Shown here: one piece after another, positions 281-38,840 of the stretch
How the letters are laid out: each line of letters opens with the position of its first letter
How positions within the stretch are numbered: position 1 is the first letter of the stretch
Origin: a virus
Direction: 5' to 3' (one strand)
IMG/VR virus record: IMGVR_UViG_3300023202_000163
Span: 1 to 64,000 of that record
DNA length: 64,000 nt
Notes under the pieces: model-generated
What the model was told of the DNA's origin: nothing
The model's input: the letters and a program-made list of their open reading frames with translations, nothing else
The model's database searches: none
Program-made: the position numbers and the translations under genes

Positions 281-355
281 CCGGGTGTAGCTCAGAGGCA
301 GAGCGCGCGCTTTGGGAGCGTGAGGTCGGGATTTCGATATTCCCCACCCGGACCA
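281..355 (+). tRNA. tRNA-Pro(TGG)
   Basis: Acceptor CCGGGTG/CACCCGG, A73, CCA; anticodon arm CGCGC-TTTGGGA-GCGTG; T arm GGGAT-TTCGATA-TTCCC has a T-T mismatch at 53:61. Confidence 0.93.
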
Positions 356-442
356 TGATAGGGGTTCCAGAACAGAAATTCTGGACGTAAGTTGCCGCAA
401 GGTTAGCCCCTTATAGAAACAAACTGTAGATAAAGGATTTTT

Positions 443-991
443 ATGCATGTAAGCATACACGGACATTTTAGAAGTGGAACTCATTACTTGCGACATGTAG
501 TAAGTGCTAACTTTTCTGTTATAATGCGTAACGATAGGCATCACGCCTTACCGGGACGATTTTTGACAGACGGACGAAAAGCACTCTATATCCGTAGAGA
601 CTTTGAAGATGTGGCTAAATCTATATGGGCTATGAAGGAACGTTTCGGGGCGGGGGCAGAGACTTTTGAAGAGTTCAAGGATATTCCTTGGCGCGAGCAA
701 TTTCGTGAATTTGATCCTTCGTTGTTGGAATTGGGTTCTTACTATAAGCGCCACAAGGCAGCCGTTAAGACAGATCGTTCACTTAGTAAGGAATCTCTTT
801 CTCCGAGAGAGTATCATGCCATGCACGTAGCCTCGTGGGAGAGTTGCCAATACGATAATGTATTAATAGTAGACTATGAAGCTATGGTATCTAGTTTTGA
901 AGAGGAAATGCGTAAAATTGCGGCATTACTGGAGTCTAATATATCGGAGTTTAAGAATATTCCTCGAACTGGGGTATGGAAAGTAAATTAG
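443..991 (+). CDS. Sulfotransferase-domain protein
   Basis: 5'-PSB-like motif GHFRSGTHYL, 3'-PB-like YIRRDFEDVAKS, and VDYEAM...MRKIAALL as in PAPS-dependent sulfotransferases. Confidence 0.75.
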   Translation: MHVSIHGHFRSGTHYLRHVVSANFSVIMRNDRHHALPGRFLTDGRKALYIRRDFEDVAKSIWAMKERFGAGAETFEEFKDIPWREQFREFDPSLLELGSYYKRHKAAVKTDRSLSKESLSPREYHAMHVASWESCQYDNVLIVDYEAMVSSFEEEMRKIAALLESNISEFKNIPRTGVWKVN

Positions 992-992
992 C

Positions 993-1069
993 GGGCCCCT
1001 AGCTCAATAGGTTAGAGCGACGGTCTCTTAAACCGTAGGTTCTGGGTTCGATTCCCAGGGGGCTCACCA
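993..1069 (+). tRNA. tRNA-Lys(CTT)
   Basis: Acceptor GGGCCCC/GGGGCTC, ACCA end; anticodon arm ACGGT-CTCTTAA-ACCGT; TTCGA T loop. Confidence 0.96.
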
Positions 1070-1125
1070 CTAGTTTAGGATGTTTGTAGGAGTTAGAGTA
1101 TTATAAGATAAACTTTTAAGCATGT

Positions 1126-1201
1126 TGCTGGATAGCTCAATCGGTAGAGCACTGGTCTCTGAAACCAGGGGTTCTGGGTTCGAATCCCAGTCCGGCAACC
1201 A
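1126..1201 (+). tRNA. tRNA-Gln(CTG)
   Basis: Acceptor TGCTGGA/TCCGGCA (T1:A72), ACCA end; anticodon arm CTGGT-CTCTGAA-ACCAG. Confidence 0.95.
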
Positions 1202-1207
1202 TAATGA

Positions 1208-1281
1208 TTGGGCGTAGTGTAGGGGTAACACTGGTGCTTTGGGAGCATCCATCGGGAGTTCGAATCTCCCCGCCCGAACCA
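1208..1281 (+). tRNA. tRNA-Pro(TGG), second divergent copy
   Basis: Acceptor TTGGGCG/CGCCCGA, ACCA end; anticodon arm GGTGC-TTTGGGA-GCATC; T arm GGGAG-TTCGAAT-CTCCC. Confidence 0.9.
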
Positions 1282-1285
1282 GTTT

Positions 1286-1372
1286 GGACAGGTAGCAAAA
1301 TGGCTGAATGCGCCGGGCTTTTAACCCGGAGGAGAAATCCCGTTGTGGGTTCGAGTCCCACCCTGTTCACCA
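1286..1372 (+). tRNA. tRNA-Lys(TTT) with long variable arm
   Basis: Acceptor GGACAGG/CCTGTTC, ACCA end; anticodon arm CCGGG-CTTTTAA-CCCGG; variable arm GGA-GAAA-TCC; 3-bp D stem. Confidence 0.88.
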
Positions 1373-1379
1373 AATTTTA

Positions 1380-1469
1380 GGAGGAGTGGCAGATAGGAAT
1401 CGCGCACGTTTGCTAAACGTAGGCCGGGATTAAAATCCCGAGTGGGATCGTTACCCACCTCCTCCGCCA
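1380..1469 (+). tRNA. tRNA-Ser(GCT)
   Basis: Acceptor GGAGGAG/CTCCTCC, G73, CCA; anticodon loop TTGCTAA; long variable arm; T loop ATCGTTA. Confidence 0.92.
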
Positions 1470-1476
1470 TATACAC

Positions 1477-1562
1477 GGAAGGTACCGTACAGGGTACAAA
1501 CTGGTTTCGAACACCAGGGCACAGGTAAAACTGTGGGGGATCGTTACCTCTACCTTCCGCCA
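1477..1562 (+). tRNA. 8/4-type tRNA-Ser(CGA)
   Basis: 8-bp acceptor GGAAGGTA/TACCTTCC, G73, CCA; D arm GTAC-AGG-GTAC; anticodon arm CTGGT-TTCGAAC-ACCAG; long variable arm; 4-bp T stem GGGG-ATCGTTA-CCTC. Confidence 0.88.
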
Positions 1563-1575
1563 CGACAGGAGAAAT

Positions 1576-1661
1576 AGAGGGTACCGTGCAGGGCACAAAC
1601 TGGGTTTGAACCCCAGGGCACAGCGAGAGTTGTGGGGGATCGTTACCTCTACCCTCTGCCA
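1576..1661 (+). tRNA. 8/4-type tRNA-Ser(TGA)
   Basis: 8-bp acceptor AGAGGGTA/TACCCTCT, G73, CCA; D arm GTGC-AGG-GCAC; anticodon arm CTGGG-TTTGAAC-CCCAG; 4-bp T stem. Confidence 0.88.
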
Positions 1662-1667
1662 GTTTTT

Positions 1668-1744
1668 TGGGGAGTAGCTCAGTTGGTTAGAGCGGTTGAC
1701 TTTGAATCAACAGGTCCTGGGTTCGAGTCCCAGCTTCCCACCCA
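1668..1744 (+). tRNA. tRNA-Gln(TTG)
   Basis: Acceptor TGGGGAG/CTTCCCA, C73, CCA; anticodon arm GTTGA-CTTTGAA-TCAAC. Confidence 0.93.
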
Positions 1745-1751
1745 AAGTAAA

Positions 1752-1839
1752 GGAAGATTGCCGGAGAGGCCAAACGGGCTCGCTTGGAAAGCGATGCGGG
1801 GTAAAACCCACAGAGGTTCGAATCCTCTATCTTCCGCCA
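1752..1839 (+). tRNA. tRNA-Ser(GGA)
   Basis: Canonical 7/5 class II tRNA: GGAAGAT/ATCTTCC, G73, CCA; anticodon loop TTGGAAA. Confidence 0.96.
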
Positions 1840-1848
1840 CTTTACACG

Positions 1849-1933
1849 GGAAAGTACCGCGCAAGGCGCAAACGGGTTTCGAACATCCGGGGAGATTTAA
1901 AATCTCGGGGAGCGTTACCTCTACTTTCCGCCA
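1849..1933 (+). tRNA. 8/4-type tRNA-Ser(CGA), second copy
   Basis: 8-bp acceptor GGAAAGTA/TACTTTCC, G73, CCA; D arm GCGC-AAG-GCGC; anticodon arm CGGGT-TTCGAAC-ATCCG; T loop AGCGTTA. Confidence 0.85.
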
Positions 1934-1947
1934 TTTAGAAGCTAGAC

Positions 1948-1975
1948 TAAAGTTTGGTTGCGTACTAGCCGAATA
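1948..1975 (+). promoter_or_regulatory. sigma28/FliA-like promoter
   Basis: TAAAGTTT-N12-GCCGAATA against the consensus TAAAGTTT-N11-GCCGATAA; lies upstream of an AGGAG RBS and the ATG at 1999. Confidence 0.5.
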
Positions 1976-1998
1976 GACATAAATGAGAAGGAGCAAAT

Positions 1999-2088
1999 AT
2001 GTTAATCCGAGTCGCTAGCGATATTCATCCAGAGTTTGGAATGGATGATTACAATTTTATATTTCCGCCACAGGATTCAATAATCTAA
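1999..2088 (+). pseudogene. Truncated duplicate of the metallophosphoesterase 5' end (29 aa)
   Basis: MLIRVASDIHPEFGMDDYNFIFPP vs MLIRLASDIHLEFGMDDYNFILPP at 2432; ends at TAA 2086-2088. Confidence 0.85.
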
Positions 2089-2099
2089 AAAGAGGTTTT

Positions 2100-2279
2100 A
2101 TGTTGTTAATACTACGTGCTCTTCTGGCTCTTCTTACCCTATGTGGTTTCTGGATCGGAGGAGCCCAACTTGGAATACTGTTACTCGGTCCCGACAACGA
2201 TCTTATTATTCTATTTGGAAGTATAGGAATGTTCGTTGGTATAGCGGCGGCCCTTGAGATTCTCACGCCTAATGTCTAG
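2100..2279 (+). CDS. Small membrane protein (59 aa, two hydrophobic segments)
   Basis: GAGG RBS; MLLILRALLALLTLCGFWIGGAQLGILLLGPDNDLIILFGSIGMFVGIAAALEILTPNV; below the ORF-track cutoff; stop codon overlaps tRNA-Trp. Confidence 0.6.
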   Translation: MLLILRALLALLTLCGFWIGGAQLGILLLGPDNDLIILFGSIGMFVGIAAALEILTPNV

Positions 2280-2355
2280 GGGTATAGCTCAGTCTGGCCA
2301 GAGCAGCGGTCTCCAAAACCGCGTGTCGTGGGTTCGAATCCTACTGCCCCTGCCA
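2278..2355 (+). tRNA. tRNA-Trp(CCA)
   Basis: Acceptor AGGGGTA/TGCCCCT, GCCA end; anticodon arm GCGGT-CTCCAAA-ACCGC. Confidence 0.97.
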
Positions 2356-2431
2356 GATAATAATAACTTAAGAGATAGAGCAAGTAACGAACCTTCTAAA
2401 TTCCCTACCCGGGCCATATATAGGTAAAAAC

Positions 2432-3208
2432 ATGTTAATTAGACTCGCGAGCGATATTCATCTAGAGTTTGGGATGGATGACTATAATTTTATACTTCCG
2501 CCTCTTCCGGAAGATCCTGAAACAGTACTAATTCTGGCTGGAGATATACATACAGGAACTTCAGCCACTGACGAATTTTTACCTTTCATGTCGTCTCGTT
2601 TTGCTCATGTTTTTTACGTTCTAGGAAATCATGAGTTTTACGGTTTTGATTTTAATACTGTAGCTGAAGATATTCGTTATAAAATAAATGATATTGCAAA
2701 CGTTACTCTACTGGACGATGACTATTTTATCCATAATGGAGTTCGTTTTGTTGGTTCCACTTTGTGGACAGATGTTAAAAAAAGAGATCCTCTGTCTATA
2801 ATGTTGGTTAGAAAAAGTATGAACGATTATAGAGCCATCAAAAAGGCAGGTTCTAGGTTGTCTGTGTATGATACAATTGATAAACATGAAGAGTCTGTAA
2901 AGTATTTGAAAAACACTTTGAATACTCCTTTTGATGGTCCTACTGTTGTTGTAACGCACCATGGACCAAGTTATCAGAGTGCTCATTATATGTACCGTGG
3001 AAATAAAGCGGAACAGCTAAATGTAGCTTACTATTCTGATCTAGAATACTTGATGCACGAGTATAATATCTCTTATTGGTTTCACGGACACACACATTCG
3101 ACCATGAGTTACGAAATAAACGGGTGCAAAGTTCGGATGAATCCTCGTGGATACGGAGAAGATCCTGAAAATCCTGACTACGACCCCATTTTTAGGGTAG
3201 AGGTTTAG
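2432..3208 (+). CDS. Calcineurin-like metallophosphoesterase
   Basis: Motifs SDIH, AGDI, GNHE, THH and HGHTH. Confidence 0.92.
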   Translation: MLIRLASDIHLEFGMDDYNFILPPLPEDPETVLILAGDIHTGTSATDEFLPFMSSRFAHVFYVLGNHEFYGFDFNTVAEDIRYKINDIANVTLLDDDYFIHNGVRFVGSTLWTDVKKRDPLSIMLVRKSMNDYRAIKKAGSRLSVYDTIDKHEESVKYLKNTLNTPFDGPTVVVTHHGPSYQSAHYMYRGNKAEQLNVAYYSDLEYLMHEYNISYWFHGHTHSTMSYEINGCKVRMNPRGYGEDPENPDYDPIFRVEV

Positions 3209-3212
3209 CTAT

Positions 3213-3620
3213 ATGTTTAAAGTTAAGAATCAATACGGTATTGAAGAAGAGGTTGAAGATTTTTGGGAGCTTTTTGAAGTATTGTTCCCTGAAAGCTGTC
3301 AAAAAGGTCTATTGAGAGATAGGCCATATGATGGACAGAATCATACGAATCACGGAAAAAGAGGTAAAACAGAAATAAAGGACATAACTTTCAGAGACCT
3401 GCACGATTGCTTTATCAGAGCCTGCTGCTTAGCTTCTGGGGAAGATAAGTGGTATGAAGAGGCCCCTAAAGGGGAAAAGGCTATGCTGGCTGAGAATGAT
3501 CTGTATAAACTCCCGTGGGAAAATATGGATATTGTTGCGGTTGCTCAGAATCTAAGTTGCGAAGTTGAAAAGATTATGGGAATTTATCCTAATATTGATG
3601 ATAACGAGGAATCGGATTAG
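3213..3620 (+). CDS. Hypothetical protein
   Basis: 135-aa ORF packed tightly between the phosphoesterase and rtcB. Confidence 0.7.
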   Translation: MFKVKNQYGIEEEVEDFWELFEVLFPESCQKGLLRDRPYDGQNHTNHGKRGKTEIKDITFRDLHDCFIRACCLASGEDKWYEEAPKGEKAMLAENDLYKLPWENMDIVAVAQNLSCEVEKIMGIYPNIDDNEESD

Positions 3621-4853
3621 ATGAGTGATTATGATGTATATAAAAGCAGTAATGTCCCTATTAAGGCCTGGACAAGAGGTGTACCTGTAGAGGGTGCGGC
3701 TGTTGAACAGCTTAAAAATATAGCTTCATTGCCTTTTATACACAAACACGTAGCAGCCCTGCCGGACCTTCACCTAGGTAAAGGTGCAACTGTTGGGTCT
3801 GTTATACCTACTAAAGGAGCCATTATTCCTGCTGCTGTTGGGGTGGATTTATCGTGCGGCATGGTGGCTGTTCGCACAAGTATGTCTTCCAAAGACCTTC
3901 CGGATAGTCTTAGATCCTGGCGAACTGCGATCGAAGAGGCTGTACCTCACGGGGCGGTTAAGGGGGCATCTCACGATAAGGGCGGTTTCTTTTCAGAAGA
4001 TCTTCCAGAAATAAATCGTGAAGTGTGGGCACATAAATTAGAAGGTAAATATAAAGAAATTAACGAAAAGCATGGCAAGATTTTTCACAAAAAAGCACCT
4101 TTCCAGCTTGGAACTTTGGGGAGTGGTAATCACTTTATTGAGATCTGCTTAGATGAGAATGATCGTGTCTGGCTTATGCTACATTCTGGAAGTAGGGGTC
4201 CTGGTAACCTTATAGGACAATACTTTATAGAGCTAGCAAAAGAGGATATGAGAACCTATTTTATAAATTTACCAGATAAAGACCTTGCTTACTTCCCTGA
4301 GGGAACAAAGTATTTTGAAGACTATATTGAAGCCATAGATTGGGCCGGAGAGTTTGCCAAATATAATAGGGAACTTATGGTTTCTAGTGTATTTTCTGCT
4401 TTAAAGAAAGTAGAAGGAATACCTAAAGAAAAACTTATGGCCCAAGATATTGCAATAAATTGTCACCATAATTTTGTACAGAGAGAAAATCACTTTAAAG
4501 AAAATGTATGGGTTACAAGAAAAGGAGCTGTTTGTGCTAGAAAAGGTATGCTTGGCATAATCCCGGGCTCCATGGGGGCAAAGTCCTTCATTGTAGAAGG
4601 AAAAGGAAATCCTGAGAGCTTTGATTCCTGTAGCCACGGAGCAGGGCGCACTATGAGCAGGTCATTAGCAAAACAAGTTTTTACTTTAGACGATCATGTT
4701 AAAGCCACATCTGGAGTGGAGTGTCGAAAAGACGAAAGTGTTTTGGATGAGACTCCTGGAGCCTATAAGGACATAGATAAAGTAATGGCAGCACAATCTT
4801 CTTTGGTTGATGTAAAACATGTACTAAAACAGATTTTGTGTGTTAAGGGTTGA
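3621..4853 (+). CDS. rtcB: RtcB RNA ligase
   Basis: PDLHLGKG, VGVDLSCG, GTLGSGNHF, LHSGSRG, HHNFV, PGSMG, SHGAGR, DETPGAYKDI. Confidence 0.97.
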   Translation: MSDYDVYKSSNVPIKAWTRGVPVEGAAVEQLKNIASLPFIHKHVAALPDLHLGKGATVGSVIPTKGAIIPAAVGVDLSCGMVAVRTSMSSKDLPDSLRSWRTAIEEAVPHGAVKGASHDKGGFFSEDLPEINREVWAHKLEGKYKEINEKHGKIFHKKAPFQLGTLGSGNHFIEICLDENDRVWLMLHSGSRGPGNLIGQYFIELAKEDMRTYFINLPDKDLAYFPEGTKYFEDYIEAIDWAGEFAKYNRELMVSSVFSALKKVEGIPKEKLMAQDIAINCHHNFVQRENHFKENVWVTRKGAVCARKGMLGIIPGSMGAKSFIVEGKGNPESFDSCSHGAGRTMSRSLAKQVFTLDDHVKATSGVECRKDESVLDETPGAYKDIDKVMAAQSSLVDVKHVLKQILCVKG

Positions 4854-4872
4854 TAATAAATTGTTTTAATTA

Positions 4873-4914
4873 ATAACCCAAACATTGGGTTATATAACCT
4901 AATGTTTGGGTTAT
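4873..4914. repeat. 42-bp nested palindrome
   Basis: ATAACCCAAACATTGGGTTAT|ATAACCTAATGTTTGGGTTAT; one mismatch overall and each half is itself an 8-5-8 inverted repeat. Confidence 0.9.
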
Positions 4915-4993
4915 ACATGACATAAGTGGAACAACTACACTAAAGAAGCTACGTTGTAGAAAATCTGCAACATAATTTTATGGAGATAAATAA

Positions 4994-5398
4994 ATGAAGG
5001 TCAAGTTTTTTGTTTTGTTTGGTTTGTTTTTTATTTTAACTTTCCCAGCATTTGCTGTGGACCCCGAGTGTGTAGATGTTACGCAAGCTGGTACTATTGA
5101 TTTTTCTGACGGTAACGGAGCTATCTGTACTTCAGCTACAGATGGAAATGGCGACCCCCTTTCAGAATCAAAAGTACTAACCTGTACGGTTACGTTTGTA
5201 GACAATGCTGGAAATGTTATTGGGACTGAAGAAGTTGTTGGTGGCCCTGGGGAATTTTTTACATTTAATACCCCTCGCGATGGTGTTGGCACTGCTTCTG
5301 CTGTTTGTGTAATGGATGAGCTTACCTCAGAAACAGCTTCGATAACAGCTATATTCCCAGCGGATGTAGCCCCAGCCCAGCCGGTTATTTTGCCTTAG
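4994..5398 (+). CDS. Secreted Cys-containing protein
   Basis: Signal peptide MKVKFF...PAFA; GGAG RBS; four Cys in the mature part. Confidence 0.75.
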   Translation: MKVKFFVLFGLFFILTFPAFAVDPECVDVTQAGTIDFSDGNGAICTSATDGNGDPLSESKVLTCTVTFVDNAGNVIGTEEVVGGPGEFFTFNTPRDGVGTASAVCVMDELTSETASITAIFPADVAPAQPVILP

Positions 5399-5405
5399 GG
5401 TCTAT

Positions 5406-5744
5406 TTGATGAGAAATTTAATAATATTTCTGGTTTTCCTAGTAGGGTGCTCCGGAGGGTCTGTTCCTCCGGAGTCTCCTGCTCCTATAAGCTTAAATTT
5501 ATATCAACCTGTTTCTGAATGCCCGGCAGAGATAGAGTATCGTTGGATTAGTGCAAGCGGGGAGCAAAGAAGCTTTTTTTCCGGAGAGGGTGGGTTTTGT
5601 GCCTTACTTTCGGAAAAAGTTACAGGAAGCCCTGTAGAGGCTCGTTGTGTACTGCGAGACAGTGGTGGAACTGTCTTACAAAGTGGGCGGTGGGTGGCCG
5701 CTAGGCAAACTAATTTAGAGGAGTTTAGGGATTTATGCCCCTAA
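5406..5744 (+). CDS. Putative lipoprotein
   Basis: Hydrophobic leader with lipobox LVGC. Confidence 0.7.
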
Positions 5745-5751
5745 ACGTAAT

Positions 5752-6144
5752 ATGACTATAGTTTTTACAAACGGCTGTTTTGATTTGCTGCATGTAGGCC
5801 ATGTGCGCTATTTAGACATGGCCAAGAAATTGGGAGATTATTTGATTGTGGGTTTAAATTCTGACGCGAGCTTTTTACGCTGTAAAAAGAGAGCGCCTAT
5901 AAATCCAGATAGGTTTAGAGCAGAAATGCTATCCGCTCTGAAGAGTGTAGATGAAGTAATAATATTTGAAGAAGATACTCCTTACAATTTGATAAAAAAG
6001 CTAACCCCAAATATATTGGTAAAGGGTGGGGATTACAAGGTTAATGATATTGTAGGTAACGAGCTGGTCGATTTTACCGTAGTCATAAGTAGCGGAATTA
6101 GTCTTCACACGTCTGATATTTTAAATAAAATTAAAGCAACATAG
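5752..6144 (+). CDS. HldE/RfaE domain II-like (heptose-1-phosphate adenylyltransferase), stand-alone
   Basis: [30 protein letters not shown]-like RAPIN, FEEDTP, LVKGGDY. Confidence 0.85.
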
Positions 6145-6154
6145 GAATATATAA

Positions 6155-7903
6155 ATGTTTAAAAATATACTAAAACTAACCTTCTTTACAATTGTACTCA
6201 TGTCATGTTCTGGCTTTAAGTGCAACCCTGCTGAAGAATGGAATCAGGTTTTTAATAGAAACTCTTTTGTGGCGGATTCTCGGGGTTGGGTTTCTGGAGA
6301 TGCTGCTCGGTTTACGAAACTCCCTAACGGTAAATTTTTATGGGCATTCGGAGACTCCAAGGTCACTAAAATAGACGTATCGTCTAATCAAGTTATAATA
6401 CAAAACCCCCGTAGTAGGGATGGTGTTTTTGGCACTATTTTAGCTATACAGGAAAGTTCACCTATTAATTCCAGTAATATTAGATTTTTTGCGAGATTTC
6501 TTGAAACTAACGCTGTACGAGATATTACTTCCGGCTTACCTTCTCTATTTTCCCAAGATGGCGGTTCCTCCAGTTTTTTTAACGAAGCTATACTAAATAT
6601 TCCAGATATTACTCCAAATACTTCTCCGGTATTCTGGCCGCATGGATTAGCTTGCATAGATTGTGAACATAACCCACAAGTAGTACTAATGCTAAAAGAG
6701 ACTGTTTTCTGCAACCCCCAGAATAGTATATATGATTGTCGGCCCTTTTGCGTACTGTCCAATATAGACGGAAGTACAGACTCTTCAACTACCTGCACCA
6801 ATGGATTAGCTTCTTTAAGAAATGTAATTGTAAAAATATTAAATCCAAATGATGATATAAAAAATTGGCAATTTCAATCGGTGATTGTTGAACCTGTTGC
6901 TACGACCGCCTGGGGCGTTGATTTTATGGAACGGTATGGTTGGGTATATGTGTACGGAACCCAGGAGAGGCCGGGAGGGGGAGTATTCGATATGATAGTT
7001 TCCCGAACTCTTAAAGAAAACGTAATGAACCCGAATGAGTGGGAGGTCCTGACGGAAAATGGGTGGGTCAAAAAATTAGAGAACCCGACACCAAAAATAG
7101 TAGCTACCGATGTATCTACAATGTTTAGTGTGGACTCTATCGTAAGTAATAATAGAGAAAATTTCTTACTGGTACACGACAGGCCTCTTAAAACCCATTT
7201 AACTTTTGTAAGACCAAGTAATAGTCAAATAAGTTGGGAAGACACAAACGAAAAAACTCCTAGAGTTGATAAATTTTCAGCGGATCTAACATTACAAAGT
7301 TCTGTGGAGTCTGCTATAGCTGCTGGAAACTGTTCACCATTTTTAGATATTATAACAGCAAAAACCTGTGTCCCAAGTTACCATGCATCTGTCTATAAAG
7401 AATTATCAGTTCCCCAAGGCGATCAGGATATTTTATTTCCAAGTGTAAAAACCCTTCTTTTTGGTTTTATAGTACCCAGAGGACCGGCTGATGGAAGTAA
7501 TAGTGCCGATTACGATAAACCAAGATTTGGTACTATTGATATAGCTAAAGTTAAACCTTGGTGTATCATCTCACATGAAAAATGTTGGAGAGGCGTAAAT
7601 CACGTATTCCCAGCCCTAGAGTTAACTGATAGTGAGATAACGTCAATAAACTTCAATGTAGTAGACAGCGATTCTTTTGTACTGGAATCGTTTTCTGATC
7701 TCTCTACATATAATTTAAGGGGCTTTGTTGATTTTGCAGAAGAAGTTGATATAGTTTGTGAATTTGATGAAAACACAGAAAGTAGTTTTTGTTTCGTAAA
7801 TAACTTAGAAGATAATAATGTATTTACACTACAACTTAGCTCAGTAGCACCTTTAACGATTATCACATTTAGAGCTAGTTATGACGGCAACGCGGGGATT
7901 TAA
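6155..7903 (+). CDS. Exported lipoprotein with probable beta-propeller (DUF4185/DUF5005-like) domain
   Basis: Lipobox LMSC; SGDAA...LPNGKFLWAFGDS, FWP and GWVYVYGT motifs recalled from that family. Confidence 0.55.
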   Translation: MFKNILKLTFFTIVLMSCSGFKCNPAEEWNQVFNRNSFVADSRGWVSGDAARFTKLPNGKFLWAFGDSKVTKIDVSSNQVIIQNPRSRDGVFGTILAIQESSPINSSNIRFFARFLETNAVRDITSGLPSLFSQDGGSSSFFNEAILNIPDITPNTSPVFWPHGLACIDCEHNPQVVLMLKETVFCNPQNSIYDCRPFCVLSNIDGSTDSSTTCTNGLASLRNVIVKILNPNDDIKNWQFQSVIVEPVATTAWGVDFMERYGWVYVYGTQERPGGGVFDMIVSRTLKENVMNPNEWEVLTENGWVKKLENPTPKIVATDVSTMFSVDSIVSNNRENFLLVHDRPLKTHLTFVRPSNSQISWEDTNEKTPRVDKFSADLTLQSSVESAIAAGNCSPFLDIITAKTCVPSYHASVYKELSVPQGDQDILFPSVKTLLFGFIVPRGPADGSNSADYDKPRFGTIDIAKVKPWCIISHEKCWRGVNHVFPALELTDSEITSINFNVVDSDSFVLESFSDLSTYNLRGFVDFAEEVDIVCEFDENTESSFCFVNNLEDNNVFTLQLSSVAPLTIITFRASYDGNAGI

Positions 7904-8481
7904 ATTATAGAGTTTATCTCTATTAAACAGGAATGAGTTCTTCGCATCCAGCCTTTTAGGAAAACTGACATTTTAGGTTTCCTTACAACTAGATTTGCTA
8001 ATAAATCAACTCTTCTAAGAACTATATTTTGTGCTATTTTTAGATTATCTTTTTGTTCACGCACTTTACTCAAAGTAGCTGGTCCTATGAGGCCGTCTGC
8101 TTTTGCCCCCACTTCTCTTTGTAGCGCCCTGGAGGACACACTCAAACCAGAATTTACTGCGTAGTCCATAACTGCTAGGGCTATGGTAGCTGGCAACTGA
8201 TCCCCCTTGATTTTATCCCAGTACTCCTTTTTATAGATTTTTTTGGCCCCTTCTTCTGTTAAATTTCTTATATCTACATCAGGATGGGATCTTTGAGCAA
8301 TACCAAAATTAGTAAGACCTCCAGGATCCGCTTCGTGATCTACTAGACCTCCTTCCCACTGTAAAACAAATTTCATAACTTTGTCAAACTTTTCCATTTC
8401 GATGTCCTTTATTTTTTCAATTAAGATATCTTCTTTTTTTCGCAAAAATATAGACAAGACTTTGTTCAGAAAAAGTCGCAT
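7900..8481 (-). CDS. GH108 family lysozyme (endolysin) with peptidoglycan-binding domain
   Basis: EGGLVDHEADPGGLTNFGI, DYAVNSG, DGLIGPATL, FLKGWMRR; the true start may be the internal MEKFD. Confidence 0.93.
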   Translation of the reverse strand: MRLFLNKVLSIFLRKKEDILIEKIKDIEMEKFDKVMKFVLQWEGGLVDHEADPGGLTNFGIAQRSHPDVDIRNLTEEGAKKIYKKEYWDKIKGDQLPATIALAVMDYAVNSGLSVSSRALQREVGAKADGLIGPATLSKVREQKDNLKIAQNIVLRRVDLLANLVVRKPKMSVFLKGWMRRTHSCLIEINSII

Positions 8482-8482
8482 C

Positions 8483-11400
8483 TTATCTAGGTTCTTGTGT
8501 GTATTCTATGGTAAGACCAGAACGGCCCACCATATCCATAACTTGTTGCCACAAATCAACAGAATTACCCTTTTCAGATCCTTTATCAAGGGCCTCTAAT
8601 TTGGGCCCGATGCTCAAAAGCCAATCTGGAGGACCGTCCACTACAACCGCCCCGTAATCCTCAAAGCGTTGGCTTCTGAGCGCTTGTATGGCCGGGGAAA
8701 CTTCTGTGAAAAGTGGGGACATCATTACTATTTTTTCTCCTGGAGCCCCATTAGGATTTACAGCTATAGCTAATTTTTGATTAGGTATTAATTGTTGGTT
8801 TTGTTTCTGTAAAATACCGTCATCACCCTTTATAGGATCTGGCGCTACTTTTCTTTCATTTCTGTGCTTAGTGTTAGGCCCTACGGCGGGTTTTCCGGAT
8901 TGACCCCAATCTGGGTTGTGGTCATGGGGAAATATAGTACCGATTCTTCTATAGTCTTCCATAGTTCGAGAAGCGCTAGCTTTATAGATATTTTCTTTAG
9001 GTGGTTTTATAGACATGAATCCTGGTTTTTTACCTGTCCGGTCCATATCCCAGTGTTCTCTGCTTTTATCATCACCATTAGGACTCCCCTTTCCTGTTTT
9101 GTTCCTTGTCATAGGCACTTCTGGATTAGGGTCTTGACCTCCTCTGCCAAAATCTGGAGAACCTTCTATAGATTCAAGTTCTGGGGCTATTTTTGGGTTC
9201 TTGGCTTTATTTGGTATGGAGTCCAAATTATGTCTTGGTTTTTTACTGTAAAATTTAGGATCTTTTCTTAAATTTTCTACAGCAGTGTCTTTATCTTCTT
9301 TGAATTCATCAAGAGCCAATTTTAACTCATGCTGGTCTACGTGAGAATCCAAATTTGATTTAAACATATTTCTTCCCGGTTCTGGGTAATTAACTACAGG
9401 CAAAAATCCAGTAGGTTTAGGCTCCCCTTGGGGTCTTACCATAGGTGCCCTGTCTAGGCCCCCACCTCCTGGATATCTTGTAAATTTTCCAGGTGAGCTT
9501 GACTCTCTGGATTCTTCAGCTTTCATGGGGGATAGATGAGGATCTTTCCCATGAACATCTAATACTTGGGGTATAGGTAGCTCCACTGCTAAAAAGCCTG
9601 CACCCTTATCCGCAGGGTAGTGTGTAGCAGGTAATTGGTCTGCTCCGGGAAATTCGTCCCGATGTTCTGGGCCAATATCTGCCGAAACAACAGGCTCATC
9701 CCACGTAAATAAATCCACAGAAGATGTACTTTCTTTTTTCAAACCATGCAAATCATAGTCTCCAGGGATACCGTCTTCTGGCGTAACCGATTGCCATTGG
9801 GGGTGATCTTTGGGTATAGGGGGAGGCCCAGAATGTTCCTGCTCCGGAGGTACAAATGGAAGAGATCCACTAAATCCATCTCTGCTACCTCTTCCCCGAG
9901 ATGGTCGCTCAGACCACTTTGTTCCCGAATTAAACCACCTAGGTTGAAATTTTAAAGATCTTTCGTGCTGTCTTTGAGGTTCGGCCTCGACTTTAGCATG
10001 GTGAGTAAGCGGACGTGCTGGTCCGAGACCTGGATGGTGTGCTTTTTCTCCTTCTGGGTCTTTCCATGCCCAGTCAAAGTGGCTTCTCCACAGGATATGG
10101 TCACTTTGATCTTCGTCAGGGTGTGTACGAAATTCACTGGGACCCTGACTACTCTTTGTGATACCCTTTTTTCGGGCGTCTCGATAGTTTCCGTCATAGC
10201 AGGTCTCTCCGGGTCTAATATGGCTATCACCACATTTATTTTTATCTTCGTTTGTCATATCTTTTCTACTCTCTAGAAAACGAGTTGCTAATTCTATAAT
10301 TTTATCCGCATCTTTTATCCCTGTTTCGTCTTCAATAGCACGAGTTAACTCTAAAAATTTACCCATCTGCGGCCCAGGTTTCATACCGCGCGCAATCAAA
10401 TCTTTTCCTGTAACAGCATCCGTAAGCTTGCTTTGTCCAGGTTCTATAAAATTTGTTACATACTCTTTATATTCTTCTAGGAATTTATCAGCTCTACTAG
10501 TATCTCGCCTTACAGCTTTTTCTGTAGTTCTTCCCAAAGTATCTGCTTTTGAGACGGCAGCCAATAGCTCCGGACTTACTTTTGCAGCATCTAAAACCCT
10601 ATTTAATCTTCTATAGCCTTTTCGGCCCGCTCTCTCTGGCATAAGTTGGGGGCGTAAGTGCGTGGCTACTAATGTGGCAACTTGTTTCGTTAGGTCATTT
10701 GGCGCTTTCATTCTTTTCATAAAAGTTACAGTGGGCTCATAACCGCCTTCTTCGTGCCCGAGTGCTCTAATCTTTCCGCCTTCTTCTACTTGTGTATTTT
10801 CCGGTTTTCCAAAATCATGAGATAATGCACCGAACATTAGCGGCATGTCAAATTCAGGATCTCCTGTTCTTTGTTTTGCCGCTTCATCAATTACCATTAA
10901 AGTGTGAACGTACACGTCACCTTCAGGATGGTGGTCAGGGTCTTGCGGAACCCCCTGTAGTTTTTCTATTTCGGGAAAATATCTTAAAAGATTAGACTGT
11001 CTAAGAACTTCTAAACCTTTTGACGGTTTTTTACCCTTTAAAAGCATTTTAGAAAATTCAGGAAATATTCTTTCTCCTGGTAATTGTTCAAGTGGTTGGG
11101 CAGCTATTAATTCTAAAGTTTTAGGCTCTACCTCAAAATCGAAACGGGCAGCAAATTGGGCTGCTCGCAAGGCGCGCAAAGGGTCTTCTCCGAAAGTATT
11201 TGGATCCGCTGCTCTTAGGATTCCGTTTCTTAAATCAGACATTCCTCCTAACGGGTCTATTATTTCCCCAGTCAGGGGGTCTTTACTCATAGCATTTATG
11301 GTTAAATCTCTTCTTCTTGCCGCCTCTTCTAGTGTCATGTTAGGGTCGGGTACTACATCAAAACCTTTATGTCCCTCTCCTTTTTTCTTTTCCCTCCTAG

Positions 11401-11662
11401 GGAGAGCTATATCCCAATCCAACTCATTTATATGTAAAACTCCAAATTGCTGTCCTACTTCCTTAACATTTCCGAAATTAGTTAAAATTTCTTTTAATTT
11501 ATCCGGCTGAAGACCAAAAACTTCAAAATCAAAATCTTTTTGCGGTAGGCCTAGTAATTCATCGCGTACTATTCCACCGACTAGATACACCTTTCCCCCG
11601 TATTTTTCTACCATTCTGGCAAAGGCTTGAACCATTGCATTATTTGCAATTGTTAAATTCAT
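8483..11662 (-). CDS. cca: CCA-adding enzyme with HD phosphatase domain, fused to a ~600-aa low-complexity C-terminal extension
   Basis: VGGIVRD..DFD, flexible loop ALPRREKKKGEGHKGF, RRDLTINA, EDPLR, HPEGDVYVHT, HDFGK, GHE and ADTLGR in aa 1-465; the remainder is Pro/Gly/charged-rich. Confidence 0.92.
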   Translation of the reverse strand: MNLTIANNAMVQAFARMVEKYGGKVYLVGGIVRDELLGLPQKDFDFEVFGLQPDKLKEILTNFGNVKEVGQQFGVLHINELDWDIALPRREKKKGEGHKGFDVVPDPNMTLEEAARRRDLTINAMSKDPLTGEIIDPLGGMSDLRNGILRAADPNTFGEDPLRALRAAQFAARFDFEVEPKTLELIAAQPLEQLPGERIFPEFSKMLLKGKKPSKGLEVLRQSNLLRYFPEIEKLQGVPQDPDHHPEGDVYVHTLMVIDEAAKQRTGDPEFDMPLMFGALSHDFGKPENTQVEEGGKIRALGHEEGGYEPTVTFMKRMKAPNDLTKQVATLVATHLRPQLMPERAGRKGYRRLNRVLDAAKVSPELLAAVSKADTLGRTTEKAVRRDTSRADKFLEEYKEYVTNFIEPGQSKLTDAVTGKDLIARGMKPGPQMGKFLELTRAIEDETGIKDADKIIELATRFLESRKDMTNEDKNKCGDSHIRPGETCYDGNYRDARKKGITKSSQGPSEFRTHPDEDQSDHILWRSHFDWAWKDPEGEKAHHPGLGPARPLTHHAKVEAEPQRQHERSLKFQPRWFNSGTKWSERPSRGRGSRDGFSGSLPFVPPEQEHSGPPPIPKDHPQWQSVTPEDGIPGDYDLHGLKKESTSSVDLFTWDEPVVSADIGPEHRDEFPGADQLPATHYPADKGAGFLAVELPIPQVLDVHGKDPHLSPMKAEESRESSSPGKFTRYPGGGGLDRAPMVRPQGEPKPTGFLPVVNYPEPGRNMFKSNLDSHVDQHELKLALDEFKEDKDTAVENLRKDPKFYSKKPRHNLDSIPNKAKNPKIAPELESIEGSPDFGRGGQDPNPEVPMTRNKTGKGSPNGDDKSREHWDMDRTGKKPGFMSIKPPKENIYKASASRTMEDYRRIGTIFPHDHNPDWGQSGKPAVGPNTKHRNERKVAPDPIKGDDGILQKQNQQLIPNQKLAIAVNPNGAPGEKIVMMSPLFTEVSPAIQALRSQRFEDYGAVVVDGPPDWLLSIGPKLEALDKGSEKGNSVDLWQQVMDMVGRSGLTIEYTQEPR

Positions 11663-13422
11663 CGTGGTCTCTTTAGAAAAACTGTTCTTATAAATTCTGA
11701 ATCAATGTGATTCTGTACTTGGGCACTTGCTCCTAGTTGTATACTAGAAGCCGATAAGGTTGTCAAGCCTACAGGAAGTGTGGTTGTAGTGTCCTCTAGT
11801 AAAATTTCTCCATCTACTGAAATTCTAAGCAAGGGGGCAGACGTTCTCCATTCTGCTACAATTTCGTGTATTTTTCCAGATACCCAATTGGTCGGAGTGC
11901 TTGTAGTTGCCGTAGCTGTAGTAGTTTCATCAGATACATTTAGAGTTAAAGTTCCGTTCGCGTTTACTTTAAACGAAATGCCTTTATTTAAAGTTATAGG
12001 GTCCCTTGTGTCAAATATATATTTGTCTTCAAAAGGAGCCCCATCAAAGCCTACGGCTACATTAAATACAGCAGCTCCTTCTTCTACAGAGAAAGGGGTT
12101 TCTGGTATATAGCTTAAGTTATCTGATACTCTTATTTGTTCCGTTAATACCTGACTTGTTGCAAACTGTGTGTTGGTTACGCTAGGTAAGGCTGTTAAAA
12201 CAGTTATAAAATCCGCTTGTTCGATCGAACCTATTTCTAGACGCCATGTAAATTTTTCTGCACTCAGAGGGTGCTGAGAGGGTTGCGATTGTATACTAAA
12301 AGGCCTTAAGGGTCTAGCGTTGAATAAATCATCTGGATTTAGAATTTTAGTAATGGACGGAAGTTGTCTATCTGCAAAATCAAAGAAATTAAAAACCAAT
12401 TTAGCTTTAGTGATATCGGATTCTGGGGAATTTTTTTCCATTCCTGCAAGTAAAGACAAAGCAATTGGCTTTGTAGCATCGAATGGTACAGGAGACGCTA
12501 AGCCTATACTTGCTTCTGTAAAAGGAGAAATACCTGGAGGGCTTGCTCCATTTAATTTTAATGCCCACACCTTTGCGTCAAAACCTTCACCCTGTAACTT
12601 CAATAAAGAGCTATTTACTATTTTTATTCCGGGAGAATCCATAGTATATTTGGCGGGAAAATTTTTACATATAGAATTATTAAGTTCTGTATCTATGTAG
12701 GTGTTATTAGGAAGTAGTTGTATTGATCCCTGCTCTGAAAACGTGGAGGCTCCCAATTCCCACCCAGGCGTATCTATATTCTGAAAAACTAATACTCCCA
12801 GGCGAGGCAATAGTCTACCGCCGCCTCCTAGATAAATTAGCTGGCCGTCAAGAAAATCTGCTGATTTTTTTTCTGCAAGCTCTTCAAATTTTATATCCAC
12901 GATAGCCCTGTTTGATGCCTCTTCCTTGATAACTACGGTTTGATTTTCCCCTAATTCTATTGGGTTATGGGGAGAGATGTTTTGGAAAGGCTCGTCTCTT
13001 TCCTTTTCGGGGTCGAGATGCCAAGATCTGTTCACAGCATTCCCTATTACAGAATTTTGTGGGGAATCACTGAATGTCCCTGCGTCGGCTAAAACCATAG
13101 TTGCTGACGTTACTTCGCCTTGGCCTTCCAGCTCTAAAGTAGCTCTCGCTTCTAGATTAGTGTTCACCGCAGGATTTACAAAAAATATATTAAAAAAACC
13201 ATCTTTGTTGGCATGGCTTTTGTCGAAGTCTACCTGCTCTAATGGAATTTGTTGCAGCCCTACTGCTGGCGTGTTAAATACGTTAAATAGTCGGACTTTT
13301 CCATTTACGACAACTTCTGGATGAAAATTTGGGTCGCATTCATCAGTAATAAATAGTTGAACTCTAATTACATTAGAGTCTACATTATAATGGGCCGCTA
13401 TTTTAGCATTTTTTGTTGTCAC
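11659..13422 (-). CDS. Putative virion protein with C-terminal LamG/ConA-like domain
   Basis: Beta-rich; C-terminal WVSGKIHEIVAEW...LRISVDGE...IQLG pattern. Confidence 0.55.
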   Translation of the reverse strand: MTTKNAKIAAHYNVDSNVIRVQLFITDECDPNFHPEVVVNGKVRLFNVFNTPAVGLQQIPLEQVDFDKSHANKDGFFNIFFVNPAVNTNLEARATLELEGQGEVTSATMVLADAGTFSDSPQNSVIGNAVNRSWHLDPEKERDEPFQNISPHNPIELGENQTVVIKEEASNRAIVDIKFEELAEKKSADFLDGQLIYLGGGGRLLPRLGVLVFQNIDTPGWELGASTFSEQGSIQLLPNNTYIDTELNNSICKNFPAKYTMDSPGIKIVNSSLLKLQGEGFDAKVWALKLNGASPPGISPFTEASIGLASPVPFDATKPIALSLLAGMEKNSPESDITKAKLVFNFFDFADRQLPSITKILNPDDLFNARPLRPFSIQSQPSQHPLSAEKFTWRLEIGSIEQADFITVLTALPSVTNTQFATSQVLTEQIRVSDNLSYIPETPFSVEEGAAVFNVAVGFDGAPFEDKYIFDTRDPITLNKGISFKVNANGTLTLNVSDETTTATATTSTPTNWVSGKIHEIVAEWRTSAPLLRISVDGEILLEDTTTTLPVGLTTLSASSIQLGASAQVQNHIDSEFIRTVFLKRPR

Positions 13423-14172: not shown

Positions 14173-17055
14173 CTATAAAATACCTATCGAGGATAAAGTT
14201 TGAATAATATCTCCCGACTGAAAGCTTTGAAGAGGAAAAGTAAATCTGTGTAAGGCTCTGAAGCCAAGGGGTTTTCCACTAAATACACCCACTGAACTAG
14301 TAGCTCGTATGAACGCTACCTTGGCAGGCGTTACAGCATTATCCAGATAATCTCGGAACCTATTTATAGCTTCAGCAAGCATAGGAGCGTGGTCATAATC
14401 GAGTGTTACTGTTTGACCAGAATTATGAACAATTATTCCACCTGCCGTAAATCCGTGGTCTAATAATTTAGGCCCCCCTTCCAGAGAGATATCCACAACA
14501 TTAACTTCTCCGTATGTTTCTATACTTTTTACTGGCATCCATAAAATATTGTGATTTAGGAGAAAATTTACTTTATTCGAAAAGTCTGGATCTGTGTCCT
14601 CAAAGTATTCTTCAGCGCTTTCCCACCATTTTCGTAGACGGGCCTTGGTAACATGTTTCGAATACCAGTCTCCCCCAGAACGGTGCCATGATATTTTAGC
14701 TCGCTTTCTCTCACCTGTGCGCGTTACGTACCATCCTTTGTTACTGGATACTGTTTTGGTTTTTTCTCTAATTGTTTCAATAACAGGAAAAGGAATTATT
14801 TCTCTTTTGGTATAAAATCTATTTGTTTTTAATATTTCTCCGTTTTTGTGAAGAAATCCAATTTTATTTATATATTTAGATAAACTAGTGCCTCTTATAG
14901 TCACCCGGTCACGTCCGTTATCGCGAGATACTATTCCAAATCGCAAAAGCACTGCTTGAAGTTGATTTCTCCACTTCTCTGAATAGCTTGTAAAAATTAT
15001 CTCATTTTTACCTATGCACCCGTCACCATCAAAATGAGCTTTAAGGTATTCCCCAACTGTTTCAAGTGGGGCTTGTAGTATGCACCAAGGTATTTCTTTT
15101 TCTTTTGATTTATAATAGCCCAAGCCTACGGAAGCAAGGAATCGTCTAAGTGTTGCTCCGTGGGCCAGGAGATATCGCATTCTCGTAGAATCCCCACCGA
15201 AGCCTGTATCATAGTCTTTAGAGCTTTCTTTTATTTTTAATTCCCTTCCAGGAAATACATGTTCAAAATCTTTTTTATACTGCTCAAGCATTTTGGCCCC
15301 AACTTCTGTGTCTTTATAGCAGCCGAATAAAATTTCACTATTTGACGAGTGTGCTCCCTCAGAAGTTAAGTATCCAAGTACCCTTGCTAGTTCTGGGGTC
15401 AGTCTATTAGGATACGTCCATTCTTTAGAATTTCTAGAAGAAGGTGTATCTAAATAACTAACATCTTCAAAGTTTATTTCCCAGTATTTATCATCTTCAG
15501 GTGTTGTGTCCAAGGCTATTAAATCACCTATTTCCATATCTCTTAAGGGTTTCCACACACAATCTAGAGATTTTTCATTTAGTGTTAAAAATCCGTGATT
15601 TTTTGTTGCTTTTATGATGTAACCCAGATTAGTTTTTACAGAAAACACCTCAGATTTGTTTTGTTCAATAAATTTAGTTACAGACTTAGATTGACCTAAA
15701 GAATTAACTTGATACTTTATGGTTTGTTTTTCGTTTTCCTCTACTAGTCCATAGGGTTTTAAAATATCCTCAAATTTAGACAAATCCCAAACCCAATGAC
15801 TTGAATTTTGTTCGTCTCTGTTTCTTACTGCTGATAATTTAAATCTAGAGAATAGCTTTCCAAGTTGTTCTGCGCTGAGATCAAAATCAAATTTTTCTAG
15901 TATCTCTGAACAACGAAGATTTTCTTTATTTTCTTTTATCGCATTAAAAATATTTTTTACATCTTCAGTTAATAATTTTTCGCTTGCTAGATATGAAGAT
16001 TTAATTCCTTTCATGTCTTTTATTTTGACTAAACCTCTATTTGTATGAACTAAAGAGTTCTCTTCCAAACAAAAAGCAAAGCCCAAGTCAACTTCGGTCA
16101 AATACTGTGCATTTAGGCCATACCAAGCAGCGCCTAATAATATGAATGAAGTAAATTGTGAGTTTCCTGCGAAAGACATTTGCCAAGATGTAATGGGATG
16201 CGCTAGGTTTATAATATCTAAGCCTCTATCTAAATACTCTATAAGATCAGAATCTTCGTAAGCCTGAACCCTACCGCGCTGTTTCTGAAATTTATCTATT
16301 AACTGTCTTAATTGTACAGTCATATTTAAAATTTGGCCGTCTACTGTGCGTATCAGCGTAAATTGCTTTTCCTCAGCAGCGGCTATATTTTGTCTAATAG
16401 TCCAAAGGGCAATGTATTGGCAATTTGGTGCCTTCAGAGCGCCCTCTGGAATGTCATAAAAATATATAAAGCTGTCTCCATTAGGAACTTCTTGTATTTG
16501 GCCGTTCGATAAGGTTACTTCTGTAGTAGTGCCCTGTGGTCCTATGGGCACGTAGCCGTTTTTACTGGCCGTATTTCCAAGTATTACCTGTAGCTTCAAA
16601 GAACCAAAATTATCTAGGTCTATTCGTTCCGTACACCTAATCATTGCTCGAAATTCACACCCCGCTAGTGATATATGACATTGGCTTCTATCTTCTGTCG
16701 CTGTTACTACTACATCCTGCACATCAAATTCGTGCGTAATTTCAGCTTGTTCGTTTACATTGGTGACGATAAACGCTGTGAATTGGTAGCGATTATTTGG
16801 GTTAGATAAGGTTGCATCGCTAGGTACGGTCCAGTTTGTAGAGTATTCTCCAACACCCCCGTCTGATTGCAGAACACCAGACTGAACAGTCACTCCGTTA
16901 GGGTCTTTTATTTCGTAAGAGGGATATCTAAGAGGGTCTTTAGGAATAAGAGGAATAGTTTTAGATCCATCTGTAAAAAAACCTATTCTGAATGTTTGAC
17001 TAGTTCCTCGTGTAAGGAGCCTAGGTATGTCGTCGGATTCTGTTAAAAACGCCAC
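14173..17055 (-). CDS. Putative head-tail adaptor (neck) protein containing one intein
   Basis: Exteins of 328 and 82 aa; YEDSDLIEYLDRGLDIIN...F/SGQTVTLD resembles jumbo-phage neck proteins (from memory). Confidence 0.6.
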   Translation of the reverse strand: MAFLTESDDIPRLLTRGTSQTFRIGFFTDGSKTIPLIPKDPLRYPSYEIKDPNGVTVQSGVLQSDGGVGEYSTNWTVPSDATLSNPNNRYQFTAFIVTNVNEQAEITHEFDVQDVVVTATEDRSQCHISLAGCEFRAMIRCTERIDLDNFGSLKLQVILGNTASKNGYVPIGPQGTTTEVTLSNGQIQEVPNGDSFIYFYDIPEGALKAPNCQYIALWTIRQNIAAAEEKQFTLIRTVDGQILNMTVQLRQLIDKFQKQRGRVQAYEDSDLIEYLDRGLDIINLAHPITSWQMSFAGNSQFTSFILLGAAWYGLNAQYLTEVDLGFAFCLEENSLVHTNRGLVKIKDMKGIKSSYLASEKLLTEDVKNIFNAIKENKENLRCSEILEKFDFDLSAEQLGKLFSRFKLSAVRNRDEQNSSHWVWDLSKFEDILKPYGLVEENEKQTIKYQVNSLGQSKSVTKFIEQNKSEVFSVKTNLGYIIKATKNHGFLTLNEKSLDCVWKPLRDMEIGDLIALDTTPEDDKYWEINFEDVSYLDTPSSRNSKEWTYPNRLTPELARVLGYLTSEGAHSSNSEILFGCYKDTEVGAKMLEQYKKDFEHVFPGRELKIKESSKDYDTGFGGDSTRMRYLLAHGATLRRFLASVGLGYYKSKEKEIPWCILQAPLETVGEYLKAHFDGDGCIGKNEIIFTSYSEKWRNQLQAVLLRFGIVSRDNGRDRVTIRGTSLSKYINKIGFLHKNGEILKTNRFYTKREIIPFPVIETIREKTKTVSSNKGWYVTRTGERKRAKISWHRSGGDWYSKHVTKARLRKWWESAEEYFEDTDPDFSNKVNFLLNHNILWMPVKSIETYGEVNVVDISLEGGPKLLDHGFTAGGIIVHNSGQTVTLDYDHAPMLAEAINRFRDYLDNAVTPAKVAFIRATSSVGVFSGKPLGFRALHRFTFPLQSFQSGDIIQTLSSIGIL
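14422..16071 (-). mobile_element. Intein (550 aa) with LAGLIDADG endonuclease
   Basis: F/CLEENSLV, block B ATKNH, LGYLTSEG and HFDGDG, IVHN/S. Confidence 0.95.
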
Positions 17056-38821: not shown

Positions 38822-38840
38822 TTACAGGAAATTTAACCTA

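Follow-up and report, generated by a model that had tools for sequence, protein, structure and literature searches.

A tRNA CCA-adding enzyme with a long conserved tail in a lineage of giant phages: a candidate for delivery in the virion

Why would a phage gene for a tRNA CCA-adding enzyme run on for hundreds of codons past the end of the enzyme? The question is raised by a gene in IMG/VR virus record IMGVR_UViG_3300023202_000163, of which we analyzed positions 1 to 64,000 (here called the window). The viral contig is 78 kb long, the window being its first 64 kb, and was judged 35% complete; the phage genome is therefore probably larger than 200 kb. The gene lies on the minus strand (8483 to 11662) and is a single open frame of 1,059 codons with an ATG start, supported as a whole by coding log-odds and by full-length homologues of 967 to 1,490 residues, the tails of which are 39 to 81% identical. 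By sequence, residues 1 to 465 make up a complete class II CCA-adding/HD enzyme, and an in-frame tail of 594 residues lies beyond it. We found that this tail is a conserved, selected part of the protein, and we tentatively favor the reading that the protein is loaded into the virion and delivered to the next host.

The initial annotation had recognized a complete CCA/HD enzyme in the first 465 residues, and matches in Pfam, PHROG, NCBIfam, and Foldseek searches bore this out. The nucleotidyltransferase head (residues 25 to 150; 11213 to 11590) matches Pfam PF01743 (PolyA_pol; E value, 1.3e-21), and the neck or RNA-binding domain (residues 175 to 233; 10964 to 11140) matches PF12627 (PolyA_pol_RNAbd; E value, 8e-11). 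There is also a weak Pfam match to tRNA_NucTran2_2, the body domain. The HD phosphohydrolase domain (residues 251 to 352; 10607 to 10912) scored 16.4 bits with Pfam HD, under the cut-off of 22; homologue P0003 scored 22.6 bits with the same model. PHROG phrog_2244 (tRNA nucleotidyltransferase) spans residues 24 to 443 (E value, 4.5e-88), and the best NCBIfam match was NF008137, "multifunctional CCA addition/repair protein" (E value, 1.1e-70), at 238 bits, which is under its equivalog cut-off of 451. The AlphaFold model of the enzyme superposes on solved CCA-adding enzymes (Foldseek E value, ~1e-16), and the head-neck-body fold is present, as seen in the match to 1miv (E value, 1.8e-16; TM score, 0.70 normalized to the target).

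The active-site residues were invariant among 18 homologues. In the head domain these are G29-G30, R33-D34, D43, and D45 of the GGxVRD...DxD signature and R117-R118-D119 of the RRD motif B. The base-selecting motif D (EDPLR, residues 159 to 163) sits just upstream of the neck domain, with D160 and R163 invariant, and the HD domain keeps H253, H282-D283, and H303. Escherichia coli Cca-type class II enzymes and the stand-alone phage homologues of phrog_2244 have the same layout of head, neck, body, and HD domains and conserve the same catalytic DxD, RRD, EDxxR, and HD residues. We predict an active-looking, bifunctional tRNA 3'-end repair enzyme that combines CCA addition with an HD phosphohydrolase. 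Cellular and most phage CCA enzymes stop at ~370 to 510 residues, whereas the window enzyme adds 594 residues without a family assignment.

Is the tail real coding sequence? With 27 other genes of the contig as the training set, a codon log-odds model gave positive values in the frame of the gene, and negative values in the other five frames, across all 1,059 codons; the in-frame continuation of about 600 residues described by the initial annotation is borne out at 594 residues, with coding signal throughout. We aligned Logan contigs from four runs of one study to the region. One independent contig is an exact copy of the stretch, the four runs contain no insertions or deletions, and the long relatives all keep a single frame. 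Because of these three results, the stop or frameshift that we looked for near 10270 is absent. Purifying selection acts on the tail, in which a co-occurring strain has 34 listed differences, 27 synonymous and 7 nonsynonymous.

A search of 5.8 billion clustered proteins returned 17 homologous proteins of 854 to 1,490 residues, with tails 39 to 99% identical; 16 of the 17 carry PolyA_pol domains. We suspected P0015 (854 residues) of having a different N-terminal module and rejected this idea, as it is the same protein starting from M206. An exhaustive HMMER scan over 1.84 billion representatives found only 12 tail relatives, one of them full length (1,359 residues) and the others of at most 430 residues. 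Nine of the 10 short tail forms that we looked up sit on contigs shorter than 2.1 kb. Scanning the viral contigs with a pattern from the single tail sequence gave no match; the alignment-based scan did find relatives. The loci comprise 28 metagenome contigs and 3 viral contigs, and all that reach far enough upstream have an uninterrupted frame of ~980 to 1,490 residues (counted in 10 metagenome loci and 3 viral-contig loci). A stop inside the tail frame occurs in two short contigs, L085 and L100. In this survey of homologues, which had been proposed as a check, no contig of sufficient length lacked the fusion.

Pairwise identities of the enzyme and of the tail correlate with an r of 0.91, and therefore the two evolve as one gene. 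Relatives are 70 to 81% identical to the window in the enzyme, 47 to 81% in the unfolded part of the tail, and 55 to 82% in its terminal domain. A quick maximum-likelihood tree covering 70 phage CCA domains placed the tail-bearing enzymes in one clade on a long branch, with a Shimodaira-Hasegawa-like approximate likelihood ratio test (SH-aLRT) support of 100. The closest relatives outside this clade are ordinary enzymes of 450 to 510 residues, ~40% identical. These results suggest that the fusion arose once. Tail length ranges from 499 to 1,027 residues among the relatives because of inserts such as copies of DUF5661. Judged from the sequences collected, the fusion is confined to one lineage of uncultured, myovirus-like giant phages of ~200 to 270 kb, and the tail is an undescribed conserved protein family of ~20 members that has no Pfam or PHROG entry.

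What kind of polypeptide is the tail? The initial annotation called it disordered, and this holds for most of its length. With an 18-row alignment, the AlphaFold predicted local distance difference test (pLDDT) score was below 50 at residues 466 to 775 and 809 to 958, with a short helical unit at residues 776 to 808. The extended Pro/Gly/His/charged region (residues 466 to 949; 8816 to 10267), defined by low pLDDT, composition, a conservation map, and single-nucleotide polymorphisms, contains 11.8% Pro, 4.8% His, 31% charged residues, and 19% hydrophobic residues. Plain disorder does not cover the whole tail, however, since its last 100 residues fold at a pLDDT of 90 and its chain carries invariant motifs. 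Dozens of tail positions were invariant in the 18-sequence alignment, and they are grouped in fixed motifs. We read the tail as about 10 invariant short motifs, four of them of the type GF..P, in a long chain that is predicted to be unfolded.

The first of these motifs is a Cys loop, CGDSHIRxGExC (residues 477 to 488; 10199 to 10234), which is followed by DG.Y (to residue 493). The initial annotation had picked out its CG-x9-C pattern, and this proved to be invariant in the 18 homologues. We considered the loop as a DUF4215 Cys-rich repeat and rejected it (13.6 bits; E value, 0.088; Pfam threshold, 27 bits). The GF..P motifs, defined from the same alignment, are GF1, RDGF.G..P (residues 594 to 602; 9857 to 9877); GF2, K..G[FY][LF]......P (residues 686 to 696; 9575 to 9598); GF3, GF[LF]PV.N.P (residues 752 to 760; 9383 to 9409), followed by NMFK; and GF4, TGKK.G[FY].S...P (residues 876 to 888; 8999 to 9022), preceded by D.D. 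GF2, GF3, and GF4 are weakly alike in hhalign profile-profile comparison (E values, 0.003 to 0.05). Between GF2 and GF3 lies PGGGGLDR (residues 731 to 738; 9449 to 9472), invariant save for one D-to-E change and followed by.PM. HRNER (residues 933 to 937; 8852 to 8866) stands near the end of the region, and HPGL, AEP.R.H.R, and RT.E......FP are further motifs of the alignment. A GGGLD motif in common with the superoxide dismutase-like protein at 36110 to 37087 was dropped, as its register differs in relatives. The whole tail had no sequence match in Pfam, PHROG, or PDB, no match among 50,697 phage records, and no usable match in the ESM Atlas.

Beyond the unfolded region is a C-terminal alpha/beta domain (residues 950 to 1059; 8486 to 8815), the best conserved part of the tail. 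Folded alone with AlphaFold2 (28 rows), the last 110 residues gave a pLDDT of 90.4 and a predicted TM score of 0.82, with the element order beta-beta-alpha-beta-alpha-alpha-alpha-beta. There was no Foldseek match at an E value of ≤0.001 in PDB or BFVD, and the best VIA-wide structural Z score, 5.3, was within the background range. We considered a 2H phosphoesterase, single lobes of which match at Z scores of 5.3 to 3.8; the two H-x-T/S motifs are absent, and the reading fails because the domain contains no histidine at all. The model suggests a new small domain without a confident structural match. Because the motifs are positionally fixed and the terminal domain is conserved, the tail likely acts through specific binding by these elements rather than through bulk properties.

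The initial annotation also saw a likeness to DUF5661 of large-phage proteins in one segment of the tail, and this proved right for the family, with a degenerate copy in the window. The short helical segment (residues 775 to 808; 9239 to 9340) aligns with DUF5661 (PF18905) in homologues. In P0007 the same alignment columns scored 35.9 bits against the Pfam cut-off of 27, and the tail-family profile matches a canonical DUF5661 protein (E value, 5e-7). The window segment itself had no match to Pfam DUF5661 at an E value of ≤10; it lacks eight residues of the module as well as the EH and DHL signature residues. We conclude from these comparisons that the window carries a degenerate, subthreshold DUF5661-like module. 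Five of the 18 relatives have no such module, and in some homologues it occurs twice. A word-indexed search with the segment returned family members only, and no mention of DUF5661 or PF18905 was found in the literature library searched. Elsewhere, DUF5661 matches weakly in a head-module protein of Vibrio phage VPs20 (E value, 0.07) and occurs in a 2,039-residue protein of virus Rctr197k, close to a feature with the annotation "similar to structural protein." The canonical DUF5661 protein matched by the tail-family profile is a stand-alone one in another phage (6279 to 6938 of contig L059). Its gene is the second one upstream from a CCA gene with an open frame of 809 codons (7644 to 10073), a second association of DUF5661 with a CCA enzyme.

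Which genes accompany the fusion? Upstream is a gene for a 587-residue protein (11659 to 13422, minus strand) with a weak LamG/ConA-like C terminus. The two genes share 4 nucleotides (11659 to 11662) where the CCA gene begins, the coupling noted in the initial annotation. Downstream, an endolysin gene with GH108 and PG_binding_3 domains (7900 to 8481, minus strand) starts 2 nucleotides after the CCA-gene stop, as had also been noted. In minus-strand order, the operon has two intein-bearing genes, two genes of unknown function, two small genes, the 587-residue gene, the CCA-tail gene, and the endolysin gene. We found the same order in three viral contigs of 184 to 267 kb. The 587-residue gene precedes the CCA-tail gene in every metagenome locus long enough, and roughly one in two related loci has an endolysin gene next to the CCA-tail gene. 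All long loci keep the succession of neck-like genes, a small gene, the 587-residue gene, and the CCA-tail gene, and these genes overlap or abut. The intein gene at 14173 has a head-tail-connector PHROG match, and the initial annotation took the products of both intein-bearing genes of the operon for putative neck proteins. The operon thus looks late and mixes neck-like, fibre-like, and lysis genes; the label "virion operon" given to it earlier is fair, although unproven. A scan for sigma-70 promoters gave nothing above chance, and the sequencing runs listed as holding the stretch included no RNA run. Inteins with LAGLIDADG or endonuclease parts were seen in the operon genes at 14173 to 17055 and 19003 to 21246, in the terminase (26151 to 30983), and in the portal (31328 to 36106). 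Contigs L002 to L004 carry intein-free versions of both operon genes, of 326 to 410 residues.

Encoded in the neighboring plus-strand block are terminase, portal, a head maturation protease (38078 to 38821; phrog_18299; E value, 3e-57), collagen-like fibres, a protein in the scaffold position, and the major head protein, the last of which is 33 to 36% identical to its counterparts in cultured jumbo myoviruses, e.g., Vibrio phage GR11A and Burkholderia phage BcepSauron. The protein in the scaffold position (38742 to 40028), directly after the protease, is rich in Pro, Gly, and charged residues and has two Cys loops, CG-x9-C and CG-x8-C. The initial annotation had likened the Cys loop of the tail to those of a head protein at 38841. 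We found that the likeness holds for the short motif: the protein at 38742 to 40028 has one CG-x9-C, for which the chance expectation is ~0.009 motifs per 1,000 residues, but it gave no significant alignment to the tail (E value, 4.9). Its second loop resembles an insert in the tail of P0003 (E value, 0.026).

Three further features of the window are recorded here. Directly after the portal gene, a 325-residue protein (36110 to 37087, plus strand) has an Fe/Mn superoxide dismutase C-terminal domain (E value, 8e-16) and a conserved charged C-terminal extension, and it is present in three related genomes. In the head module, a 764-residue protein (41425 to 43719, plus strand) combines a long N-terminal half, acidic and rich in Pro and Gly, with an ATPase-like match at its C terminus; it is the third protein in the genome with such a Pro/Gly-rich region. 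On the strand opposite the CCA gene, positions 281 to 6144 hold 11 tRNA genes (Pro, Lys, Gln, Ser, and Trp), a metallophosphoesterase gene, RtcB, and a small cytidylyltransferase-like gene.

Do other phages attach CCA domains to larger proteins? Among 60 other phage CCA loci that we fetched, there were at least four independent incorporations of the CCA domain into a very large protein. Contigs L012 (4167 to 10856) and L039 encode a 2,230-residue protein that starts with Phage_Mu_F (E value, 4e-12), has a CCA/HD part 39% identical, and also holds a HATPase domain, a ParB-like stretch, and an HExxH stretch. In L034 (7344 to 15134), the stretch after the CCA domain of a 2,597-residue protein matches a solved phage portal (E value, 5e-4). 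Proteins of at least 4,660 residues contain a CCA domain in L017 (3324 to 17303) and L058, and a 669-residue protein in L016 (7344 to 9350) has a 219-residue N-terminal extension.

MuF and portal fusions define the phage polyvalent proteins, which are predicted to be packaged and injected (Iyer et al. 2017, PMC5512222); CCA enzymes are not mentioned there. The CCA-tail protein resembles polyvalent proteins in being a nucleic-acid enzyme fused to nonenzymatic modules including DUF5661, in its late-gene location, and in its variable inserts. It appears to differ in having no string of different effectors, only the usual pair of nucleotidyltransferase and HD domains. Its tail is one conserved, mostly unfolded unit, which varies in length, has extra inserts, and has a DUF5661 module that is present, degenerate, or absent. 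The N4 virion RNA polymerase has a noncatalytic region that is needed for encapsidation (as cited in PMC5512222). The logic proposed for the CCA-tail protein is like that of this polymerase and of T4 Alt and the internal proteins, a ready-made enzyme delivered with the DNA, but there is no sequence or fold relation among them.

Virion loading is the best single reading of these data because the tail motifs are fixed, the conserved partners are late genes only, and related CCA domains occur in giant proteins. The initial annotation had suggested a tail that directs the enzyme into the prohead, to be injected as infection starts. We regard delivery in the virion as a possibility ahead of the others, to be held tentatively. 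According to this model, a repair enzyme was fused once to a delivery or anchoring tail of 499 to 1,027 residues, and the protein would be made late, together with the products of the neck-like, fibre-like, and lysis genes. The short motifs and the C-terminal domain would dock it on a component of the assembling particle, and the unfolded chain would permit storage and threading out with the DNA. A ready-made repair enzyme would then arrive in the next host ahead of phage translation. Such early repair could be useful where host defenses damage tRNA 3' ends.

Several points weigh against virion delivery. With Pfam and PHROG, we found no MuF, portal, or protease anchor in the 1,059-residue protein, and no protease cleavage motif was established in it. 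The T4 capsid-targeting peptide is short, N terminal, and cut off by the head protease, and capsid-targeting signals of this kind are unlike a long C-terminal tail. The functional partners of a repair enzyme, namely, the tRNA array, RtcB, and the phosphoesterase, are on the opposite strand. A position in a late operon is by itself no proof of packaging. The precedents are related enzyme domains and not a homologous tail, and there is no cultured relative, the tail being unmatched among the phage records searched. A complex prediction of the 587-residue neighbor with tail residues 860 to 1059 scored 0.03, which gives no verdict either way.

A more specific form of virion delivery, which we consider doubtful, is that the tail is a virion-loading or ejection handle, made up of the Cys loop, the GF..P motifs, and the terminal domain, that carries the repair enzyme into the next host. 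A haplotype in two of the Logan runs, X2 and X3, hints that such a handle may be open to different enzyme heads. There, a more abundant co-occurring strain matches the tail (to 10267) and the upstream gene (from 11621) at ~95 to 99% and is unlike the window across 10268 to 11620. These boundaries correspond to residues 14 and 465, the enzyme part. One contig appears to join 10267 to 11621 through ~750 unmatched letters instead of 1,353, and another contig of the abundant strain runs from 11621 into unlike sequence. The enzyme part is covered in the same runs by window-like contigs of lower depth. A search of the viral contigs for the 30-nucleotide loose end of this haplotype gave no match. The strain may carry the same tail behind an enzyme head that has been replaced or has diverged strongly.

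If the protein is not packaged, the tail could instead work outside the particle as a cytoplasmic tether that recruits the enzyme to ribosomes, to the RtcB/phosphoesterase set, or to a host factor and so raises local repair late in infection, at the time of peak demand for translation. Recruitment regions typically carry multivalent, invariant short motifs on a flexible chain, a full tRNA toolkit is encoded nearby (11 tRNAs, RtcB, metallophosphoesterase, and cytidylyltransferase), and a virion anchor was not found in the tail with Pfam or PHROG. However, the genes with which the fusion keeps a conserved coupling are neck-like and fibre-like late genes, with the repair genes on the other strand, and related CCA domains sit repeatedly in head-anchored giant proteins. 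No partner was identified. We regard tethering as rather unlikely, even if it is the strongest of the alternatives.

The tail might also have a function of its own, as a scaffold-like or assembly-chaperone protein that is fused to the CCA gene, made from one transcript, and separated by proteolysis. Its composition is like that of the protein that follows the head maturation protease, with which P0003 has a short Cys-loop motif in common. The abundant haplotype retains the tail and differs in the enzyme stretch, and two 430-residue database proteins, on contigs of 1.7 and 3.9 kb, start just after the Cys loop. Set against this are the co-divergence of enzyme and tail, the retention of the fusion wherever contigs are long enough, and a junction that, Cys loop included, is invariant and not linker-like. 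No cleavage site is known, and almost all of the short forms come from contigs smaller than 2.1 kb. We consider two separable functions improbable.

Formation of condensates, the other role suggested for the tail by the initial annotation, is not favored. The tail would in that case be a disordered region of the sticker-and-spacer type, gathering the enzyme and perhaps tRNAs into a phase-separated compartment. With its many Pro and Gly residues and scattered aromatics, the region is indeed a balanced polyampholyte, and it is predicted to be unfolded. In such regions composition is usually conserved but exact motifs are not, whereas this tail has dozens of invariant positions and is best conserved in its folded terminal domain. 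Motifs that are invariant and fixed in position speak for specific binding, and for this reason we think a condensate driver very unlikely. An artefact, in which the tail would be noncoding or would belong to another gene and have been attached through misassembly or a frameshift near 10270, is hardly credible, given the exact independent contig, four runs without insertions or deletions, more than 10 independent long contigs with a single frame, mostly synonymous polymorphisms, and coding signal in frame, against which we found only the tail-frame stops in L085 and L100.

Many bacterial defenses stop phages by damaging tRNA, and a repair enzyme encoded by the phage is useless once translation is blocked. 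The organization of the tail described here is unusual, with invariant short motifs in a long, predicted unfolded chain and what may be a new small terminal domain. If virion delivery is correct, arrival of a ready-made enzyme would solve the problem of blocked translation, and it would extend the known range of injected phage enzymes from transcription and host modification to tRNA repair.

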